A stretch of DNA of 64,000 bases, from the NCBI GenBank assembly GCA_902470365.1, contig CABRFZ010000008.1:3748-67747 (forward strand), given 5' to 3'. This document shows, in pieces, positions 1-62,263 of this stretch; the stretch's first letter is position 1, and each line of letters begins with the position of its first letter. The stretch is from an uncultured Collinsella sp. (GTDB lineage: Bacteria; Actinomycetota; Coriobacteriia; Coriobacteriales; Coriobacteriaceae). The position numbers and the translations under genes were made by a program. The notes below the pieces were generated by a model. That model was not told the DNA's origin. It worked only from the letters and a program-made list of their open reading frames with translations, and did not search any database.

Positions 1-668
1 ACGACACCTGGGGCACCGAGCTGACGTTTGGCTTTACGAGCGCCATCGACGTCGCCACCAAGTGCATCGACGACATCCACACTACCGCTTCAAGCCATGG
101 GCGCGTATTCGTTATCGAGATCATGGGCCACAAGGTTGGCTGGATCCCGCTGTACGCCGGCGTCGCGGGCGGCGCGGATGTCATCTTGATTCCCGAGATC
201 CCCTACGACATGGATAACGTCATCAAGACCATCGAGCATCGCATGGAGACCGGCAGCCGCTTTACCATCGTGGCCGTCGCCGAGGGCGCTATCTCCAAGG
301 AGGACGCGGCGCTGTCCAAGAAGGAGTACAAGAAGAAGCTCGCCGAGCGCACGAGCCCGTCAATCGTGTACGACATCGCCAAGGAGATCGAGGCCAAGAC
401 CGGTCGCGAGACCCGCGTCGCCATCCCCGGCCACACGCAGCGTGGCGGCCAGCCCGACGCTCAGGACCGCATCTTTGCGACCCAGTGCGGCGTCGAGGCC
501 GCGCTTGGCTGCCTGCGTGGCGAGTTTGGCTACATGATTGCCCTGCGTGACGGCAAGATGTGCCACATGCCGCTCGAGGATGTCGCCGGCAAGCTCAAGT
601 ATGTCGACCCCCAGAGCGATCTTGTGCGCGAAGCCAAGGCATTGGGCATCAGCTTCGGCGACGAATAG
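1..668 (+). CDS. pfkA: ATP-dependent 6-phosphofructokinase, C-terminal part (5' end lies outside the window)
   Basis: Frame 3 is open from base 3. The translation DTWGTELTFGF..VFVIEIMGHKVGW..PGHTQRGG carries PFK family motifs. Stop TAG at 666-668. Confidence 0.9.
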   Translation, partial: DTWGTELTFGFTSAIDVATKCIDDIHTTASSHGRVFVIEIMGHKVGWIPLYAGVAGGADVILIPEIPYDMDNVIKTIEHRMETGSRFTIVAVAEGAISKEDAALSKKEYKKKLAERTSPSIVYDIAKEIEAKTGRETRVAIPGHTQRGGQPDAQDRIFATQCGVEAALGCLRGEFGYMIALRDGKMCHMPLEDVAGKLKYVDPQSDLVREAKALGISFGDE

Positions 669-843
669 CCTCGGCCGAAACTGCTCTCATCGGAGGCCCC
701 AGGGCTTACCTCCCAAATCGTCCTCGGACATGTCAAGACCCCGCTGCGCGCTTCGCGCGGCGGGGTCCTTCCGTCCTGCGGAAAGATTTGGGAGGTAAGC
801 CCTGAGGCCTCCTGCGGTAACTAGGGAGGTCGAGGCTATTCGT
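661..843 (+). repeat. Nested-palindrome 3' element, family A copy 1 (three stem tiers)
   Basis: Three stem tiers: 661-676/829-843, 692-719/785-812 (27/28 complementary), and apical hairpin 738-768. Core motifs are CGTCCTCGGACATG and CCTGCGGAAAGATTTG. Confidence 0.85.
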
Positions 844-872
844 CTTCTTGCTGCGGGTGCCTGGTCTGAAAT

Positions 873-7788: not shown

Positions 7789-7960
7789 TCTAATACTTTC
7801 CCGAGAAGTGAACGAGTAAAAACGAAGCCCCAGAGCATCCGCACCTTTAGACCGCAAAACCGCAGGATTCGCACAGCAAAACCTCAGGAAATAGCGGTCA
7901 AAAAATGCCAATGCTTCGGGGGTCAAAATAAGGTCGTTCACTTCTCGGGAAAGTATTAGA
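7789..7960. repeat. 27-bp perfect inverted repeat pair with a 118-bp spacer
   Basis: tctaatactttcccgagaagtgaacga (7789-7815) is the exact reverse complement of 7934-7960. Confidence 0.8.
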
Positions 7961-8173: not shown

Positions 8174-8303
8174 GGCGGGGGCCGGGCTTAGCTTTCAGAA
8201 CACTCCGCAGACCAGTGTGGCGCCTTGTCCGCGGCTCCGAAGGAGCAGGACAAGGCGCCACACATGGTCGAGGACGTTCTGAAAGCTAAGCCCGGCCCCC
8301 GCC
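8174..8303 (-). repeat. Nested-palindrome 3' element, family A copy 2
   Basis: Arms 8174-8201/8276-8303 are 28/28 complementary. The core is TCCGCAGACC..CATGGTCGAGGACG. It lies just downstream of the asd stop. Confidence 0.85.
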
Positions 8304-8315
8304 GGACAGGTCACA

Positions 8316-9341
8316 CTACTCGCAGAGCAGCTTAGCGATCTGGACGGCGTTGGTTGCCGCGCCCTTACGGATTTGGTCGCCGCAGCACCAGAAGGTGATG
8401 CCGCGCGCGGCCTCGGGGTTCGAGATGTCGCGACGCACGCGGCCGACCCAAATCAGGTCCTGGTCGGAGGTGTCCATCGGCATGGGGAAGCGGTCGTGTG
8501 CATCCTCGGCAGCCATATCGTCAACCAGCTTGACGCCGGGAGCAGCAGCCAGCACAGCACGGGCCTCTTCCACCGTGATGTCGCGCTCAAACTCGAGCGT
8601 AATGCTCTCGGAGTGCGAACGCAGCACGGGCACGCGCACGCAGGTGCAGTTCACGCGCAGCTCGGGCAGGTGCATAATCTTGCGGCCCTCGTTTTGCAGC
8701 TTCATCTCCTCAGAGGTAAAGCCCTCCTCCTTGACGCCGCCAATCTGCGGAATCAGGTTGCTCGCCAGCTGGGCGGCAAATGCGCGCGGCTCGGGAATCT
8801 CCTCGCCACGGCCCAGGGCAGCAAGCTGCGCTTCGAGCTCGGCCATACCGGGAGCACCGGCACCAGAAGCCGCCTGATACGTCGAGACGATCATGCGCTT
8901 CACGCCGGCAAGCTGATGCAGCGGCCACGTGGGAACCAGGCCGATGATGGTCGCGCAGTTGGGATTGGCGATAAGGCCGTGATGCCATTTGATATCGTCG
9001 GCATTGATCTCGGGCACGACCAGCGGCACCTCGGGATCCATGCGGAAGGCGTGGCTGTTGTCGACCACGACGGCTCCGCGCTTGACGGCCTCGGGCAGCA
9101 GCTCCTTGGCGATATCGTCGCCGGCAGCGCCGAGCACGATGTCGCAGCCCTCAAAGGCCTCGGGGCAAGCCTCTTCGATCACGATTTGCTCGCCGCGGAA
9201 CTCAACGGTCTTGCCCGCGGAGCGTGCGCTTGCCAACAGCTTGAGCTTGCCGACCGGGAACTCCTGCTCGTTGAGGCACTCGAGCATCTGGGTGCCCACG
9301 GCTCCCGTCGCGCCCAAAATAGCAACCGTGTACTGTTTCAT
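8316..9341 (-). CDS. asd: Aspartate-semialdehyde dehydrogenase
   Basis: MKQYTVAILGATGAVG.. with a NAD-binding N-terminus and the NPNCATI active-site region. ATG at 9341 with a GGGGGA SD. Confidence 0.9.
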   Translation of the reverse strand: MKQYTVAILGATGAVGTQMLECLNEQEFPVGKLKLLASARSAGKTVEFRGEQIVIEEACPEAFEGCDIVLGAAGDDIAKELLPEAVKRGAVVVDNSHAFRMDPEVPLVVPEINADDIKWHHGLIANPNCATIIGLVPTWPLHQLAGVKRMIVSTYQAASGAGAPGMAELEAQLAALGRGEEIPEPRAFAAQLASNLIPQIGGVKEEGFTSEEMKLQNEGRKIMHLPELRVNCTCVRVPVLRSHSESITLEFERDITVEEARAVLAAAPGVKLVDDMAAEDAHDRFPMPMDTSDQDLIWVGRVRRDISNPEAARGITFWCCGDQIRKGAATNAVQIAKLLCE

Positions 9342-9416
9342 GCTTCCCCCTTTAAAGGTTGTGGCTATCGCCCGCACGCCAGGCAGGCCGGATATTCTTG
9401 CCCAGTTTATACAAGA

Positions 9417-9443
9417 ACGGGGCGGATACAAAACCCGCCCCGT
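9417..9443 (-). terminator. Probable intrinsic terminator after lysC
   Basis: Minus strand reads acggggcgg-gttttgta-tccgccccgt followed by tcttgt. Confidence 0.55.
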
Positions 9444-12536: not shown

Positions 12537-12570
12537 GCGCCGGCGAAAGCCGGCGCACCTTCTTTTTATT
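12537..12570 (+). terminator. Intrinsic terminator after thrC
   Basis: gcgccggc-gaaa-gccggcgc followed by accttctttttatt. Confidence 0.75.
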
Positions 12571-12599: not shown

Positions 12600-12711
12600 G
12601 CGGGTCTGGCCGTTTAGTTCGTCGCGAGTTCCGCACGAGCCGGAAAGCACTTAATGTGCTTTCCGAGCGAGCCAGGACTGCCCGAGCAGCGAACTAAACG
12701 GCCAGACCCGC
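12600..12711 (+). repeat. Divergent family A-like palindromic element between the thrC terminator and the thrB RBS
   Basis: Arms 12600-12621/12690-12711 are 22/22 complementary. The inner CGTCGCGAG / CCGAGCAGCG only loosely resembles the family A core. Confidence 0.6.
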
Positions 12712-12725
12712 CCAGGAGGACCCAC

Positions 12726-13607
12726 ATGATCAAAATCACCGTCCCAGCAACCAGCGCCAACCTAGGCATCGGCTACGACACCCTCGGCATGGCCGTCAGC
12801 CTCTACTCGCACTTTACCTTTGAGCGCGCCGATAAACTCACCATCACGGGCTGCCCCGAGGAATTCCAAAACGAGAACAACCTGGTCTATGTGAGCTTTG
12901 TCGATGCTCTGGCCGCCTGGGGCGAGCCGGCCTTCCCCGTCGCTATCGACATTCAGACCGACGTGCCCGTCGCCCGCGGCCTGGGTTCCAGCTCCACCTG
13001 CGTCGTCGCCGGCATCATGGCTGCCGCCGCGCTGACAGGCCACACCGTCGACCGCGCCGAACTCGTCCGCATCGCCACCGAGGTCGAGGGCCATCCCGAT
13101 AACGTCGCCCCCGCCATCCTGGGCGGCGCCGTCTGCTCCTTTACGCCGACTGATTCGCTCCCCCAGTGCCTGCGCTATGAGGTGAGCGATCGCTTGCGTT
13201 TTATTACCGTGATTCCGCCCTACGAGGTGCATACGAGCGAAGCCCGCAAGGTTGTGCCACAGGAGATTCCACTCTCCACCGCCGTATGGCAAATGGGCCG
13301 CATCGCCGGCATGACGCGCGGCTTGGAGACTGGTGACCTCGACCTGATTGCCGCCGCCAACGACGACCGCATCCAGGAGCCCTATCGCCGCCGCCTCATC
13401 CCCGACTACAACGCCGTGCGCGACACCTGCCTTAACGGAGGCGCCAAGACCATCTGGATCAGTGGCTCCGGCTCGACCCTCATGGCCGTGACTGACGACA
13501 CCATCGTGGCAAAGTTCCTACAGGTCAAGCTGCGCGAGCAGTTCCCCAAGTGCGACACGCATATCCTCACGTGCGACACGGAAGGCGCTCAAATCGAGTA
13601 CCTGTAG
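12726..13607 (+). CDS. thrB: Homoserine kinase
   Basis: MIKITVPATSANLGIGYD.. and the GHMP motif RGLGSSS. ATG at 12726 after AGGAGGA. Confidence 0.9.
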   Translation: MIKITVPATSANLGIGYDTLGMAVSLYSHFTFERADKLTITGCPEEFQNENNLVYVSFVDALAAWGEPAFPVAIDIQTDVPVARGLGSSSTCVVAGIMAAAALTGHTVDRAELVRIATEVEGHPDNVAPAILGGAVCSFTPTDSLPQCLRYEVSDRLRFITVIPPYEVHTSEARKVVPQEIPLSTAVWQMGRIAGMTRGLETGDLDLIAAANDDRIQEPYRRRLIPDYNAVRDTCLNGGAKTIWISGSGSTLMAVTDDTIVAKFLQVKLREQFPKCDTHILTCDTEGAQIEYL

Positions 13608-13787
13608 ACATCCTCCTCATATACCTGTCCGGGACGGTCGGGATATTCCCTCAAAATCGTCCTCGCGCATGAAGGCCCCTTGTCCTGCTCCTACGGAGCG
13701 ACGGACAAGGGGCCTTCGCGCTGCGGAATGATTTTGAGGGAATATCCCGACCGTCCCTGCGCCTACCTTGCTGAGGATGTCTACAGG
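13601..13787 (+). repeat. Nested-palindrome 3' element, family A copy 3 (three tiers)
   Basis: Tier 13601-13615/13773-13787 includes the thrB TAG. Tier 13631-13658/13730-13757 is 28/28 complementary. The core is CGTCCTCGCGCATGAAGGCCCC..GGGGCCTTCGCGCTGCGGAATG. Confidence 0.9.
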
Positions 13788-23233: not shown

Positions 23234-23418
23234 CCTAAAGGGTGACTCCGAAGAACCCCGCTTGGCCGTTTTTGGGTTATTTTCCAAAACATCCCGCAGG
23301 ACGCAAAGAGGCCCCGCCGCGCAACGCGCGCAGCGGAGCCTCTTTGCATGTCCGAGGACGTTTTGGAAAATAACCCAAAGCGGCCCGGCGATCCTGCGGG
23401 AGTTAAACCCCTTTAGAA
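23234..23418 (-). repeat. Nested-palindrome 3' element, family A copy 4
   Basis: Arms tttgggttattttccaaaac (23271-23290) and its complement (23360-23379) are 20/20, with imperfect extension. The core is TCCCGCAGGACG..GCATGTCCGAGGACG. The outer tier reaches the TAA of the 83-aa gene. Confidence 0.8.
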
Positions 23419-23664
23419 CTTGTCGTGGAAGGTACGCGCAATGACCTCGTCTTGCTGCTCCTTGGTGAGCGTGTGGAAGTTCACGGCATAGCCGGAAACG
23501 CGGATGGTCAGCTGCGGGTACTTCTCGGGGTGAGCCTGAGCGTCGAGCAGCGTCTCACGGTTGAAGACGTTGATGTTCAGGTGGTGGCCACCCTTCTCGG
23601 CGTAAGCGTCGAGCATGTGGACCAGGTTATCGGCCTGGGTCTCGGAAACTTCAGAAACCTTCAT
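23413..23664 (-). CDS. Stand-alone glycyl-radical domain protein (GrcA/YfiD-like; equivalent to the PFL C-terminus)
   Basis: [39 protein letters not shown] with the glycyl radical motif RVSGYAV. It has its own GAAGGAG SD 6-7 nt before the ATG at 23664. Confidence 0.85.
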
Positions 23665-33096: not shown

Positions 33097-33140
33097 AAAA
33101 CGGGGGCGCAGGACAACCTGCGCCCCCGTTTTGTGTTCTT
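33097..33140 (+). terminator. Intrinsic terminator after the ABC exporter pair
   Basis: aaaacgggggcgcagg-acaa-cctgcgcccccgtttt followed by gtgttctt. Confidence 0.8.
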
Positions 33141-33189: not shown

Positions 33190-33428
33190 CCCCGTGGGCA
33201 AAAAAGGGCAAATATGAGTACTGTTACCATTTTAGTAACAGCCAAAACAGCCCCAAATGCCGTTTTCGCGGCTTACACGCGTCCCTAAATTGATCAAACA
33301 GCCCTATAACGGACTTATATGTGTTTGCGTTAATGAACATATTTTGCTGTTATGTATATTATTTTGCGAAGGCAATATGATACTAAGATAGCAACCGTAC
33401 TCATATTTGGCGTTTTTTGCCCACAGGG
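33190..33428. mobile_element. MITE-like element: ~37-bp imperfect terminal inverted repeats around a low-GC core
   Basis: ccccgtgggcaaaaaagggcaaatatgagtactgtta (33190-33226) pairs with the reverse complement of gcaaccgtactcatatttggcgttttttgcccacaggg (33391-33428). It has no ORF. Confidence 0.45.
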
Positions 33429-38980: not shown

Positions 38981-39261
38981 CAAACGTCAGCCGCCACGGG
39001 GGAGTTGCCTTCCCTCGTGGCGGTCTTCTAGCAGAAAAACCAAGTGAGTAGGCTTTTTGCAGGAGGCCAAGCACGCCCCAAAACGCCACAGCTCTGACCT
39101 GCAGTTTTATAGATCATTTGTCGCGATGTGCTCGGCAGGTTCAAAAAAGTCTACTCACTTGTATCTGAGACGCACCAGATTGGCAAAAACCGCCGCGAAA
39201 GGCGCCCGGCTCCCTTCGCGGCGGTTATTTGCTCTGGTTTTGCGACCGCTTTTCCCGCTTG

Positions 39262-42377: not shown

Positions 42378-42492
42378 GGGGTAGTCTTTTTGGGACGGGG
42401 CTTTTTTAGCTACCCCATCCGTAGCCTTCGAAACATGGGGCCGCATTTGACATAGGGCAGCTAAAAAAGCCCCGTCCCAAAAAGACTACCCT
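42378..42492. repeat. 33-bp perfect inverted repeat with a 49-nt loop in a divergent promoter region
   Basis: gggtagtctttttgggacggggcttttttagct (42378-42410) is the exact reverse complement of 42460-42492. Confidence 0.85.
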
Positions 42493-42523: not shown

Positions 42524-43513
42524 TTGAAGACTGTTCATGTTGCCGCTGGGATCATTCGCAAGGAAGGATCTGACGAGCTGCTTGCCGTGCAGCGCGGCTA
42601 TGGCAACATGCAGGGACTTTGGGAGTTCCCCGGTGGCAAGCTCATGCGCGGCGAGACGCCCGAGGACGCCGTGCGCCGCGAGCTCATGGAAGAGCTGCAG
42701 GTAAAAGTCACCAACCTGCGCGATTTCTATACCGTTGAGTACGACTACCCCGATTTCCATCTCTCCATGGAGTGCTACTACTGCTCGCTCGCCGATGAAT
42801 CCGATGAGCCGCAGAAGCACGACCGCCAACTCGATATCCGCTGGATTCCGCGCACCTCGCTTGCCACGGTTGAGTGGATGCCCGCCGACAAGGGGCTTAT
42901 CGATGCTCTGATTGAGTTGAAGGAAGATCGGCTTGAGGCCAACGACACTGCCAACGACGCCGAGGCCACCACGACCGACGAGCCCGCTTCCAAGCCCAAG
43001 CGCGCACCTAAGCGCCGCAGCAAGAAGCGCCCCAAGCCCGGTCTGCTCGACGGCATCGATACCTCGGACCTCTCCGCCGACGAGCGCGAACTGGTGCGCC
43101 GTCGCGCCGCTATAAAAAAGTCCATGAAGGGCAACAAGCGCGCCAACACCAAGCCCGAGCTGCTCGTACGACAGCGCCTGCGCGCAGCGGGCCTCACGGG
43201 CTATCGTTTGGAATGGAAGGTTCCCGGCAAACCCGATATCGCCTTCCCCGGGCGCAAGATCGCCATCTTCGTCAACGGTTGCTTTTGGCACCGCTGCCCC
43301 AAGTGCAACCCTAGCAAGCCCAAGCGCAACGTTGAGTTTTGGGAGGCAAAGTTCCGTCGCAACGTCGAGCGCGACCGCGCTGCCGTGGCAGCACTCACTC
43401 AAATGGGCTGGACACCCATAACCATCTGGGAATGCGAGCTCAAAAAAGACCGCATCGACGCCACCATGGAAAAGGTCATCGAGCAGGTGCGCACTGCAGA
43501 GCCGCAGCGCTAG
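42524..43513 (+). CDS. NUDIX (MutT-like) hydrolase fused to a Vsr very-short-patch-repair endonuclease
   Basis: The NUDIX box is GGKLMRGETPEDAVRRELMEELQV. A basic low-complexity linker follows. Vsr motifs are KPDIAF, NGCFWH, VERDR and IWECE. TTG start 6 nt after GAGGGAGGA. Confidence 0.85.
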   Translation: MKTVHVAAGIIRKEGSDELLAVQRGYGNMQGLWEFPGGKLMRGETPEDAVRRELMEELQVKVTNLRDFYTVEYDYPDFHLSMECYYCSLADESDEPQKHDRQLDIRWIPRTSLATVEWMPADKGLIDALIELKEDRLEANDTANDAEATTTDEPASKPKRAPKRRSKKRPKPGLLDGIDTSDLSADERELVRRRAAIKKSMKGNKRANTKPELLVRQRLRAAGLTGYRLEWKVPGKPDIAFPGRKIAIFVNGCFWHRCPKCNPSKPKRNVEFWEAKFRRNVERDRAAVAALTQMGWTPITIWECELKKDRIDATMEKVIEQVRTAEPQR

Positions 43514-44045
43514 GAACGAGCCGTCCACACGCCCCGCACGTCCGCGCCACATCCGCACCACAAACCTTAGAAAGCCCTTAAGCTCAAAACCTTTCAAGAG
43601 TGTTACTCGATGGCTTTGACCTGCGGTTTCATCGTATCATCAAACCAGGTTAAGCCTTTCTTTAGCGCTTCTTTGCGACAGCCGCGGCATAATACTGCCA
43701 ACGCACGGGACCTAGCAGCATACCCCGTGCGCAACCTTTTGGTGGACATCGAGGAGGCCGCATAAGCATGCATTCTTCCAATGACGCAGCACAGCAGCCA
43801 TCCCTAAAACATGCAGATCTTTTCTCCTTCCCCCCGACACAGAGAAACGACCTCCTCGACTCCCCCACCACAAAAGCAAAACGCTCAACCGACCAGAGCC
43901 TCAACTTGCGAGCATCGTTCGAAAAGCTCCAAGCATCCCTAAACAAGTCATTCCCCAACCAAGCCCGGGCATACTAATTCCCCATCAACAAAGCACCCCT
44001 CGCACCCCATCCTTTCCGCCCCAACGCCACAAGGGCGATCGAGCA

Positions 44046-44198
44046 GGACAGCTTGGGCGGGTCCCCGTACTTAGTTTCCAAAATCATTCCGCAGCGCGAA
44101 GGCCCCCGTTGCCAACGCTTCGTAGAAGCGAGGGAACGGGGGCCTTCATGCGCGAGGACGTTTTGGAAACTAAGTACGGGGACCCGCCCAAGCCGTCC
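44046..44198 (-). repeat. Nested-palindrome 3' element, family A copy 5
   Basis: Arms 44051-44083/44161-44193 are 33/33 complementary. The core is TTCCGCAGCGCGAAGGCCCCC..GGGGGCCTTCATGCGCGAGGACG. It lies just downstream of the aldolase stop. Confidence 0.9.
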
Positions 44199-44222
44199 GG
44201 TGGGATCAGAGTACCCTTGCTG

Positions 44223-45080
44223 TTACTCTGCTTTGCCCACAGAGTTGAGGTTGGTCATGCGGATCTTAACCAGCTCGGTGATCTCACGCATGCCCTCCTT
44301 GGCCGGCTTCTTGGGATCGAAGCAGGCGGGGTTCTCGGCCATGTAGGCCATGAAGCCCTTGGTGTAGGCCTGACGCAGCTCGGTGGCGTAGTTAACCTTG
44401 CAGATGCCGTTCTTCACAGCCTCGGCAACCTGCTCATCGGGCACACCAGAGGTGCCGTGCAGGACCAGCGGCACGTCGACGGCGTCGCGGATGGCCTTGA
44501 CCACGGACTGCTCGATGTGCGGATCGCTCGTGTACACACCGTGGCTGGTGCCAACGCCAATGGCCAGCGAGGTGCAGCCGGTACGCTCGACGAACTCCTT
44601 GGCCTCAGCAGGATCGGTGTAGGGGCTCTCGCCCTCAACCGCGGGACCGTCGTCCTCCTTGCCGCCAACCTTACCGAGCTCAGCCTCGACGGGCACGCCC
44701 ATGGCGCGGCCAGCGTCGGCGACGGACTTGGTCAGAGCGATGTTGTCCTCGAAAGACTCGTGCGAACCGTCAATCATGACAGAGGTGTAGCCAGTGCGGA
44801 AAGCCTGCATGCAGCGGTCATAGCCATCGCCGTGATCGAGGTGCAGAGCGACGGGCACGGAAGCGCGCTCGGCGGCAGCCTTGACCATGCCGTAGAAGTA
44901 GTCCAGACCGGCGGTCTTGATGGTGCCCGGGGTGGTCTGCATGATGACGGGGGACTTGGTCTCCTCGGCAGCGGCCAGAACGGCCATAACAAACTCGAGG
45001 TTCTCGACGTTGAACGCACCGACGGCGTAGTGGCCGGCCTGAGCGTCCTTGAGCATCTTTTCGGTGGTAACAAGTGCCAT
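44223..45080 (-). CDS. Class II fructose/tagatose-1,6-bisphosphate aldolase
   Basis: VGAFNV, LHLDHG and SVMIDGS motifs. ATG at 45080 with a GGAGAGGAG SD. Confidence 0.85.
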   Translation of the reverse strand: MALVTTEKMLKDAQAGHYAVGAFNVENLEFVMAVLAAAEETKSPVIMQTTPGTIKTAGLDYFYGMVKAAAERASVPVALHLDHGDGYDRCMQAFRTGYTSVMIDGSHESFEDNIALTKSVADAGRAMGVPVEAELGKVGGKEDDGPAVEGESPYTDPAEAKEFVERTGCTSLAIGVGTSHGVYTSDPHIEQSVVKAIRDAVDVPLVLHGTSGVPDEQVAEAVKNGICKVNYATELRQAYTKGFMAYMAENPACFDPKKPAKEGMREITELVKIRMTNLNSVGKAE

Positions 45081-45414
45081 GAGCGTTTGCTCCTCTCCCT
45101 CGCCCGCATCTGGACATCGGGCGTAGTTGTTCACAAGGCGTTTTACCTTGCGTTTTACTGCGCTCATTGTATGAAATTCAGCGGCTTTGCACGTGCGAGA
45201 TATTGAGCCCATGCAGGTCAATACCGTCGTTTTTGAAAAGCAAACGGAAGGAATTGAAGCCGAGCGGGCGTGTTCGATATTGAATTTTAGGCGTTCAGCG
45301 TCTTTCTTTTATAGAAAAGATAAGTAATCGAAAGGTGTTTTCTTACTCAAAAAGAAAATGAACGAAAATAGAGTCAACACAATTCCTGCATATTTAGCCG
45401 AGAATGGAGCAGCC

Positions 45415-51940: not shown

Positions 51941-51979
51941 TGCGACCAAGGCAACGCCGGTGTCTTGTCAACGACAGCG

Positions 51980-52120
51980 AAAACGCCCCTAAGCGAGCAA
52001 GGTGACGTGAAAGAGGAGGGCATTGACCTTTTGGTCATGCCCGACGATTGAACGTCAGATTGCCGCTTAGGGGCGTTTGCAGCGTCGCGCCGTTACGCGG
52101 TTTGGTAAAACCGCGTAACC
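51980..52120 (-). repeat. Family C 3' element, copy 2
   Basis: On the minus strand the lacC TAG is followed by ggttacgcggttttaccaaaccgcgtaac, then CGACGCTGC, CAATCTGACGTTCAA, a GC hairpin and TTTCACGTCA, as at 34679-34826. Confidence 0.75.
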
Positions 52121-55211: not shown

Positions 55212-55518
55212 GACATCCTCCTTGAGAGATACGCAGGTGCGTAGTTTCTGTTTGGAAGTGTTGAATCGCGTTCAGGTCCGGGCATCTGAATGTGCGGTTC
55301 TTCACTGTTCATGTTTATTTGAACACATTCGAACATCAACTGCAAGAATTATTTGTTTATCTTTGTTCTTTTTTGAACAAATACCGTTCACGGATGATTG
55401 CCGACCGTTTGGGCCGGGTGCGGACGTAGCGACCATGTGTTCAACAAACAAAAAGGCGGCCGAGAACGTGTCTCGGCCGCCCTTCTTACAGTTGATCTTC
55501 CAAAGAACGCTTTGCCGC

Positions 55519-58376: not shown

Positions 58377-58536
58377 AGGTCGATCTTTCTATGTCAACGA
58401 TGCCATTGGCGGCACCCTACGCAGTCAAATGAAACGTCTTCAAGTATATCTAACGCCTCCCCCACCATACGCTCACCACCCAAAACCTACCGTTCACCGA
58501 CATTTTTGCTTCCCCGAACGGCTTTTGTCGCCCAAA

Positions 58537-58670
58537 TGTTAACGTTGCCATTGTGCAAACAAAGAGCCACCGGGCGGCTCAAACGTTTACGCGTAAGGAA
58601 TCGACGGTTCGCAGGCACAGGAACCACCGGTTCGCGTCTTTTTTTGTGTCGCAAAATGGCAACGTCAACA
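58537..58670. promoter_or_regulatory. Two LacI-type operators upstream of lacE
   Basis: TGTTAACGTTGCCA (58537-58550) and TGGCAACGTCAACA (58657-58670), centres 120 bp apart. Confidence 0.6.
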
Positions 58671-58733
58671 TTTTGGCAAGCAAACGTCAAAAGCTACCAT
58701 CGTTGCTAACCCACCGACTCTTAGGAGCTTTGC

Positions 58734-62111: not shown

Positions 62112-62263
62112 GCCGTTTGTCTCGATCTGTAACATCTAGCCGAGTTTTTTGGTCCTAGCTGTTACAGATTGAGACGAACAGGATTGCTCTTTCCGAAGAA
62201 TCTAAATCTGTAACACGTAGCCCGCTTTTGACCGTCTACCTGTTACAAATCGAGACAAACGGA
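62112..62263. repeat. Family F composite palindrome (four CTGTAACA-containing units forming two tandem hairpins)
   Basis: Units at 62112-62139, 62155-62182 (inverted), 62203-62220 and 62236-62263 (inverted). The first and last units are almost perfect complements. Confidence 0.75.

Follow-up and report, generated by a model that had tools for sequence, protein, structure and literature searches.

The closest described relatives of the elements considered here are hairpin-forming repeats of bacterial intergenic DNA. CGTC-tagged repetitive extragenic palindromic (REP) sequences carry an unpaired 5' tag (CGTC, with variants TGTC and CCTC) and a short CCA-type 3' tail that is likewise unpaired, round stems of 8-9 bp that start with two A/T pairs and loops of 4-5 nt. 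They have no dedicated transposase, lie <20 bp from the 3' ends of upstream open reading frames (ORFs), occur in tens to hundreds of near-identical copies, and are reported in Proteobacteria, Chlorobi, Bacteroidetes, Spirochaetes and Thermotogae and not in Actinomycetota (Di Nocera, De Gregorio & Rocco 2013; PMC3733652). In REPINs a single conserved REP occurs as an inverted doublet, and there is a master sequence and a single-copy, REP-flanked RAYT gene (Bertels & Rainey 2011; PMC3116915). A third point of comparison is template switching in quasipalindromes, which can produce multibase ‘compensatory’ changes in one step (Monttinen & Loytynoja 2022; PMC8794818). Against this literature we set a family of nested palindromes found in a 64,000-nt stretch of DNA (the window) from an uncultured Collinsella sp. 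(contig CABRFZ010000008.1 of assembly GCA_902470365.1), and in particular the copy that lies behind the homoserine kinase gene, thrB. Collinsella is a common human gut actinobacterium, and to our knowledge essentially nothing has been described of its post-transcriptional control or its genome repeats.

The anatomy of the family was worked out from an alignment of 35 copies (A2) and from measurement of all 92 distinct arms. In 57 of these arms the outer stem stops at 28-29 bp, and directly outside it lie a basal left box (TGTCC, CGTCC, CCCTC or CTCACC) and a basal right box (CTGCGG, CTACG or CTGCC) that are of the same motif kind as the inner boxes, CGTCCTC and CTGCGGARTG. Because the basal and inner pairs are alike, the element can be described as two nested brackets, each CGTCC ... 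CTGCGG, the outer one holding the 28-bp arms and the inner one a core hairpin. The core comprises a 4-bp helix, an AU bulge, a variable stem of 10-15 bp and, at the apex, a GC hairpin whose loop is TTCG-like; GCCGC-TTCG-GCGGC is the smallest core seen. Beyond the basal loop there is often a locus-specific outermost stem, which pairs the stop-codon region with downstream DNA. Whole elements span 130-190 nt.

The likeness to CGTC-tagged REPs is considerable. The tags here are CGTCC(TC), TGTCC and CCCTC, with the inner CGTCCTC present in all copies; units are combined into larger foldable structures; the preceding ORF ends within ~20-35 nt of the element, and the genes on either side are unidirectional or convergent but never divergent; a dedicated transposase has been found in neither; and at 25 nt the smallest inner unit, CGTCCTC-GCCGC-TTCG-GCGGC-TGCGG, has the size of a REP. 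However, the helix next to the tag has 4 bp (GGAC, GCGC or GACC), or 5 bp (GCCGC) in the smallest core, just the apical loops (TTCG, CTTC, TAC) fit the REP loop size, and on the 3' side both brackets have CTGCGG(ARTG) in place of CCA. The architecture is nested and not a head-to-head dimer, the outer stems of 28-29 bp are locus-specific, and there are only ~20 copies, each in one fixed orientation. The Collinsella elements are therefore filed outside the CGTC REPs on the grounds of stem length, A/T start, CCA tail, copy number and the lack of reports from Actinomycetota, and the best-supported placement of the family would be as a variant of the REP/BIME kind. With REPINs it has in common that the repeats are long, hairpin-forming, non-autonomous, extragenic and vertically inherited within a lineage, but its two halves carry different boxes, its arms differ at every locus and there is no master sequence. 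No box-flanked ORF that could correspond to a RAYT was found in 1.36 Mb, the whole genome not having been searched for a Y1 transposase.

We give about an even chance to the reading that these are REP/BIME-like nested palindromes, homogenised at the level of DNA, which serve as transcribed 3'-end hairpin barriers and are recognised through their boxes. The complementarity of the arms would be kept by arm-to-arm copying of DNA, through template switching during replication or gene conversion within the palindrome, and ectopic conversion or exchange, with the boxes as its limits, would carry cores from locus to locus. On transcription the element would form the 3' end of the mRNA of the upstream gene and fold into an almost continuous hairpin of ~60 bp, acting as a barrier by termination or by blocking exonucleases (a ‘retroregulator’). 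The boxes would be a selected, strand-specific recognition feature for a putative factor.

A census of the window and ~1.36 Mb of Collinsella DNA gave 165 copies, with 77 distinct cores, at ~17 loci, and the same loci recur across the whole sample. Copies were ascertained through the boxes, except for a grcA set retrieved by protein identity. In a scan of one genome per species, ~33 of the 120 stretches listed were Collinsella or unnamed Coriobacteriaceae, and complementary flanks (the outer stem) were found only in Collinsella/Coriobacteriaceae stretches, the remainder of the 120 being chance matches. At least 120 human-gut metagenome stretches match a stricter pattern, and looking up the GrcA protein of the window leads to complete C. 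aerofaciens-like genomes with the same element locus, which places the window in C. aerofaciens or a near relative. A further 250 kb of the C. aerofaciens record NZ_OY725717.1 holds no copy by box search or covariance model; thus the family is low-copy, the window with its five copies is a cluster, and a high-copy repeat (~1 per 13 kb) can be rejected. The family is specific to the genus Collinsella, with roughly 17-25 loci per genome. The 18 pattern matches in viral contigs all lack the outer stem and are attributable to chance, phage records yielded no copy, and the single match in PLSDB is a 900-kb piece of chromosome, with no copy in true plasmids. At orthologous sites the element is present in nearly all of those sampled, a sample mostly ascertained through the element itself.

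The initial annotation of the window had described five such elements, a divergent sixth, long complementary arms and a covarying inner 4-bp helix, and had recognised no named repeat family. All five are present where described, with the CGTCCTC / CTGCGGARTG boxes round the inner hairpin in common (Table 1); in a common orientation they can be aligned end to end. The recognition pattern CGTCCTCNNNNATGN{35,65}CTGCGG matches 5/5 of them and has no match in 100 shuffles. When window hairpins were scored on both strands with the family covariance model, the five copies reached 99-127 bits in the sense and 51-65 bits in the antisense direction (116 bits on the + strand versus 64.7 on the - strand for the thrB copy, whose predicted fold has an energy of -136.5 kcal/mol, z = -17). 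An inverted-repeat scan recovered the long arms, and the covariation of the inner helix was borne out (GCGC:GCGC, GGAC:GTCC, GACC:GGTC). The supposed sixth member, between thrC and thrB, is not supported as one: it scores 26-28 bits on both strands, the same as any long hairpin, and its minus strand holds merely degenerate box-like strings (GTCCTG ... GTGCGGAAC). A search of the window against Rfam gave no match at gathering thresholds and nothing of relevance at E-value thresholds; the best sub-threshold match over an element is a spurious microRNA precursor on the long hairpin at 44046-44198, with 30 bits where the threshold is 84. The Collinsella-1 motif, which we take to be an Rfam family, was among the candidates considered. 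It was set aside (PMC2864571), there being no Rfam family that matches the window. The catalogue of Fremin & Bhatt (PMC8040213) lists unnamed Collinsella candidates with no sequences. The idea that GCRCTTCGYGC represents a small REP family of its own was also discarded, since it has just two matches in the window, which is not significant.

The stems of the family covary strongly, as the initial annotation had described. In alignment A2 the paired share of cells is 95.0% against 68.1% in shuffles, and the covariation score is 0.718 against 0.215, with none of 500 shuffles as high; sliding the partners by 1-3 columns lowers it to 0.12-0.20. Changes on both sides are seen in 42 of 52 pairs. The further step, from covarying stems to selection on a folded RNA, is not supported. 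G.U pairs make up 1.3% of cells in the outer stem, and among its mismatch events 40 are of the G.U type and 44 of the A.C type, so the two DNA strands are equivalent. Comparison of alleles within a locus gives 74 compensated switches and 80 non-Watson-Crick states. Arm diversity, at 10.3-10.5%, compares with 7.6% at third codon positions and 13% in intergenic flanks; the arms drift at about the neutral rate yet stay complementary, and hypermutability of the arms is rejected because their diversity is comparable to that of synonymous sites and flanks. Moreover, many of the between-copy ‘covariations’ reflect reassortment of locus-specific arms with exchangeable cores and not independent substitutions.

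Watson-Crick arms, strand symmetry and a neutral rate are what arm-to-arm copying at the DNA level, by template switching or gene conversion, would predict. The mechanism described for quasipalindromes (PMC8794818) accounts for the Watson-Crick-only, strand-symmetric pattern of the arms, but it is a mutational mechanism and leaves the boxes, the stem length and the association with genes unexplained. It had been objected that homogenisation would also symmetrise the asymmetric core. Local symmetrisation does occur, in that the internal loop TCGG/CCTC is replaced at the pta locus by a perfect CATG/CATG, and a flip of the core is seen as well, so the objection is only partly right; the boxes nonetheless stay asymmetric. 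Their asymmetry in the face of symmetrisation elsewhere implies purifying selection on them. The conservation of boxes amid varying stems is also apparent in the grcA set, where CTGCGG is invariant at an arm diversity of 17%. We read both the boxes and the stem length as being under purifying selection.

Clustered separately, arms and cores behave as distinct modules. The arms fall into 32 locus-specific clusters, while cores are common to several loci and differ between strains at one locus: core 0 is paired with four unrelated arm types, and the grcA locus has five core types. At the fba locus the window and stretch L005 have flanks that are ~97% identical and elements that are entirely different. 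Individual stretches show an allelic recombinant with non-complementary arms (L122), a core inverted between unchanged flanks and basal boxes (L192), an element precisely absent between two GCCCTG repeats (L259) and a core deleted between two GTCCT repeats (L247). GCCCTG, the sole direct repeat seen where an element is missing, overlaps with the stem and is compatible with slippage. In some strains a new complete element stands by the stop codon at grcA and ppc and is followed by the right half of an old one; in such arrays only right halves survive, and new copies are on the stop-codon side. Tandem arrays of one complete element with one or two right-half remnants are present in L152, L160, L174 and L178 (ppc) and in L121, L125, L126 and L130 (grcA), each remnant beginning at a small GCGC-TTCG-GCGC hairpin. 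A search for orphan boxes in 1.36 Mb returned variant right boxes, chance matches within genes and half-remnants only; with no box-flanked gene there, no autonomous parent element was seen.

Rearrangements of this kind raise the possibility that the element is a DNA-level recombination site, a folded strand or cruciform whose brackets are the substrate of a structure-specific enzyme (HUH/RAYT-like or attC/integrase-like). Such an enzyme would excise and insert hairpin cassettes, and orientation and position would follow from the insertion mechanism or from the distribution of permissive sites. The exchange of cores precisely at the boxes, the nested bracket motif, the precise empty site and core deletion with short flanking repeats that include box sequence, and the arrival of new elements beside the stop codon with old remnants downstream all fit, and suspected mobile hairpins are already known in the form of CGTC-tagged REPs (PMC3733652). 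We nevertheless consider it unlikely. Besides the lack of a box-flanked ORF, the annotation of 250 kb has no transposases other than those of IS21, IS30 and IS1249; slippage between direct repeats of 5-6 bp would account for both deletions equally well; copy number is low, loci are stable across strains and nearly all orthologous sites are occupied; and the orientation of the copies (see below) is unlike that expected of single-strand transposition of the IS200/IS605 type. That the elements are classical MITEs, moved through their terminal inverted repeats by a DDE transposase, is scarcely credible despite a size of 130-190 bp, palindromic form and intergenic position: as had been argued from the window, the arms, which are the termini, are not conserved between copies. 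There is also no associated transposase. No consistent target-site duplication was seen, and no parent IS was found in Collinsella DNA or in phage or plasmid records.

The position and orientation of the elements relative to genes are regular. At 13 of the ~17 loci the element is co-oriented with the gene that precedes it, and its outer stem begins 8-36 nt past the stop codon of that gene. Two loci have antisense copies, 250-1150 nt from the nearest stop codon and with no unannotated small ORF upstream, and two further single cases are ambiguous; none of the ~17 lies between divergent genes. In the window the upstream genes encode phosphofructokinase (pfk), aspartate-semialdehyde dehydrogenase (asd), homoserine kinase (thrB), the glycyl-radical cofactor GrcA (grcA) and class II aldolase (fba), and those elsewhere include pyruvate:ferredoxin oxidoreductase (PFOR), PEP carboxylase (ppc), the lactate channel larD, ilvE, phosphotransacetylase (pta), oppF, lactaldehyde reductase (fucO) and groEL. 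These are largely the fermentative core plus housekeeping genes, and they are expected to be highly expressed. The GC skew of the window has one sign in 14 of 16 4-kb bins, and within this one replichore copies occur in both directions, two against three, each along its upstream gene; orientation thus tracks transcription, not replication. The sense orientation at 13 loci argues that the asymmetric part of the element matters in the transcript, and since a flip is possible and orientation is nonetheless constant, this part most likely acts there.

Position at 3' ends could in theory mean that the elements are ordinary transcription terminators that are merely alike. The terminator scan predicts no separate canonical terminator behind element-bearing genes, and towards its top the stem often has an A-rich left and a T-rich right side. 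However, within the elements the scan picks up nothing but incidental sub-hairpins, there is no U-tract after the structure and the T-run lacks conservation (there are arms such as ...CGCGGA/TCCGCG...), whilst short canonical terminators of a different form are present elsewhere in the window, at 12537-12556, 33097-33132 and 55450-55486. With their size of 130-190 nt, conserved boxes and shared cores, the elements are not simple terminators, as had been concluded at the outset, and the idea that they are ordinary terminators is highly improbable.

It is also conceivable that the element is a cis-acting structured RNA, with stems under compensatory selection and loops a 28-bp ruler apart that bind a dedicated protein; this protein would co-regulate mRNAs of central fermentation genes, the whole making up an RNA regulon. 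The internal loop bears on this. It had been described as conserved, asymmetric and unpaired; the first two properties are upheld, but the loop is largely pairable in sense-strand RNA. The predicted pairing of the inner box region in sense RNA runs C-G, G.U, U-A, bulged A, C-G, C-G, and in the predicted fold of the antisense RNA the region stays open; for one representative core the folding energies are -56.1 (sense) and -50.4 kcal/mol (antisense). Summed over all cores there are 135 G.U pairs in the sense and 28 in the antisense direction, an excess confined to the core and box region. This sense-specific wobble pairing, the sense orientation, the strong functional bias of the upstream genes, the conserved boxes amid variable stems, the fixed stem length with duplicated box pairs and the high formal covariation would all suit a structured RNA. 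On the other hand, the outer stems lack a wobble signature, arm drift is about neutral, much of the covariation between copies is module reassortment, the core G.U pairs come from a few conserved positions and not from many independent events, and the dedicated binding protein is purely putative. We regard this reading as rather unlikely.

At the other extreme, the elements could be neutral or selfish palindromic junk that is tolerated at gene 3' ends, the boxes being mutationally protected or hot spots of conversion. Neutral evolution of the arms, the frequency of rearrangements, remnants and deletions, and the many unrelated long intergenic palindromes elsewhere in the window are in its favour. 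Its weakness lies in the fixed stem length and the invariant boxes amid 10-17% arm diversity, in a sense orientation that is consistent though a flip is mechanistically possible, in the strong bias to a specific set of presumably highly expressed genes and in retention at nearly all orthologous sites, and we regard it as very unlikely.

Two other classes of element invite comparison. ERIC and Correia elements are imperfect palindromes of 100-190 bp that are co-transcribed with their neighbours and for which orientation-dependent effects on mRNA processing are reported; their consensus sequences and termini are conserved, and Correia elements have TA target duplications. The Collinsella elements share with them an imperfect palindrome of 100-190 bp, but the conserved consensus or termini and the TA duplications do not apply. 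The attC sites of integrons have complementary R''/R' boxes (RYYYAAC/GTTRRRY) and form cassette arrays beside an integrase. The likeness extends to a site that lies behind an ORF and is co-oriented with it, short boxes at the base of a palindrome, free sequence and an asymmetry that marks the strand. However, the Collinsella boxes lack such complementarity, and the elements lie dispersed behind core genes that are syntenic, with no array; no integrase lies beside them, the rest of the genome not having been searched for one.

Several points weigh against a homogenised palindrome that acts as a barrier at the mRNA 3' end. Two to four loci have an antisense element or one far from a stop codon, and in the five window copies there is no T-run or U-tract after the outer or outermost stem. 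We infer the RNA role from position and orientation only, and a perfect 28-bp duplex RNA would suit RNase III, so that the element could destabilise the mRNA instead. The conserved homology available at the boxes for core exchange is just ~12-18 nt. The conservation of the boxes is partly circular, the census being box-based except for the grcA set. Finally, a fixed length of 28-29 bp combined with neutral sequence implies structural selection that is not assignable to the DNA or the RNA level.

Table 1. Positions of the thrB element and its parts, of the other family copies and of further inverted repeats in the window (box pattern, the recognition pattern given in the text).
Feature	Position	Strand	Remarks
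thrB element	13601-13787	+	sense, downstream of thrB; outermost stem, basal loop, 27-bp outer stem, boxes, inner core; scan arms 13631-13685/13703-13757
Outermost stem, left arm CCTGTAGACATCCTC	13601-13615	+	locus-specific; pairs with 13773-13787
Basal left box CCTGTCC	13624-13630	+	consensus (C/T)GTCC; abuts outer stem on 5' side
Outer stem, left arm GGGACGGTCGGGATATTCCCTCAAAAT	13631-13657	+	pairs with 13731-13757
Inner left box CGTCCTC	13658-13664	+	box match
Inner core cassette	13665-13721	+	helix GCGC:GCGC, AU bulge, 15-bp stem, apical hairpin GCTCC-TAC-GGAGC; exchangeable between loci
Inner right box TGCGGAATG	13722-13730	+	CTGCGG when preceding C included
Outer stem, right arm	13731-13757	+	pairs with 13631-13657
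Basal right box TGCGCC	13758-13763	+	CTGCGC with last C of arm; family consensus CTGCGG
Outermost stem, right arm GAGGATGTCTACAGG	13773-13787	+	pairs with 13601-13615
Pattern match, thrB copy	13658-13726	+	box pattern
pfk copy	660-844	+	sense, behind pfk (ORF end 668); boxes 719-725, 776-785; arms 692-718, 786-812; scan arms 692-719/785-812, 27/28 complementary
Pattern match, pfk copy	719-781	+	box pattern
asd copy	8174-8303	-	sense, behind asd (8316-9431, -); scan arms 8174-8201/8276-8303, 28/28 complementary
asd copy boxes	CGTCCTC 8270-8276; CTGCGG 8205-8210	-	sequence reading
Pattern match, asd copy	8205-8276	-	box pattern
grcA copy	23234-23418	-	sense, behind grcA (23413-23664, -); scan arms 23271-23322/23328-23379
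Pattern match, grcA copy	23294-23360	-	box pattern
fba copy	44037-44207	-	sense, behind fba (44223-45221, -); extended 47-bp arms; scan arms 44037-44083/44161-44207
Pattern match, fba copy	44089-44160	-	box pattern
Separate palindrome, 22-bp arms	12600-12711		strand unassigned; between thrC and thrB; family membership not established
Box-less long intergenic inverted repeats, arms 21-51 bp	873-943; 995-1154; 7789-7960; 33190-33428; 39041-39161; 42379-42491; 51972-52087; 58523-58684; 62113-62262		covariance-model scores at generic-hairpin level only

The thrB stop codon, TAG (13605-13607), lies inside the left arm of the outermost stem of the thrB element, and stretch L116 has a compensated variant of this stem; at grcA, too, the outermost stem overlaps the stop codon, and a lacI-family gene follows ~100 nt downstream of the copy. 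That the element donates the stop codon (CCTG followed by TAG) was ruled out, TAG being the commonest stop genome-wide (24/46) and the C-terminus of ThrB being kept across different element versions. Among the 46 genes predicted in the window by a codon-bias gene caller the stops are TAG 24, TAA 21 and TGA 1, in a genome of ~59% GC; such a near-absence of TGA is unusual at high GC and may reflect weak or lost RF2-type decoding or another constraint. In L116 (4213-7430) and L006, ~3.1 kb separate the thrB element from engB, where the window has 77 nt. This additional DNA directly adjoins the element and, with ORFs of 92, 337, 232 and 231 aa, resembles a small accessory island.

Upstream of thrB, the thrC-thrB spacer contains the terminator-like hairpin 12537-12556 and then a perfect palindrome with 22-bp arms just 5' of the thrB ribosome-binding site, for which attenuation is one possible role. 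The box-less inverted repeats of Table 1 may represent further, unrelated families of palindromic repeats. The ORF at 42524-43513 (+) combines two NUDIX domains and a Vsr very-short-patch-repair endonuclease domain in one frame. The annotated Rho of stretch L273 (31126-33708) is unusually long (2583 nt, ~860 aa), which may be relevant to 3'-end formation in this organism. The record to which L273 belongs, NZ_OY725717.1 (L269-L273), is labelled ‘plasmid 6’ of C. aerofaciens TSDC17.2-1.1, but its length of 899,693 bp and a gene content that includes recA, rho, ftsK, pnp, ribosomal protein genes and the like show that it is evidently a piece of chromosome and not a plasmid.

The family provides a natural example in which strong covariation (none of 500 shuffles as high) is, on our reading, produced largely by homogenisation of palindromes at the DNA level together with reassortment of modules, and it is a caution for RNA-motif discovery pipelines that take covariation as proof of RNA structure. 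Its features have not been seen together in the REP, BIME and MITE families described so far: few copies, an orientation that is strictly sense, a stem of fixed length and free sequence between duplicated conserved boxes, locus-specific arms, exchanged centres and a location at the 3' ends of the main fermentation genes.

A more specific and tentative proposal, to which we give a rather low probability, is that the box pairs (C/T)GTCC / CTGCGG, kept 28-29 bp apart by a helix whose sequence is free, form a bipartite 3'-UTR RNA platform for a dedicated, putative protein that would co-control ~20 mRNAs of the fermentative core. The protein would control their stability or termination (pfk, fba, PFOR, ppc, pta, grcA, larD, fucO, groEL and others), whilst palindrome dynamics and core exchange would copy and renew the platform. 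If this is true, the platform would amount to a 3'-UTR ‘RNA regulon’ of central metabolism. Boxes that act as recombination sites would represent a new way of moving hairpin cassettes; boxes that bind a factor would provide Collinsella with a directly testable 3'-UTR control module for its central metabolism.

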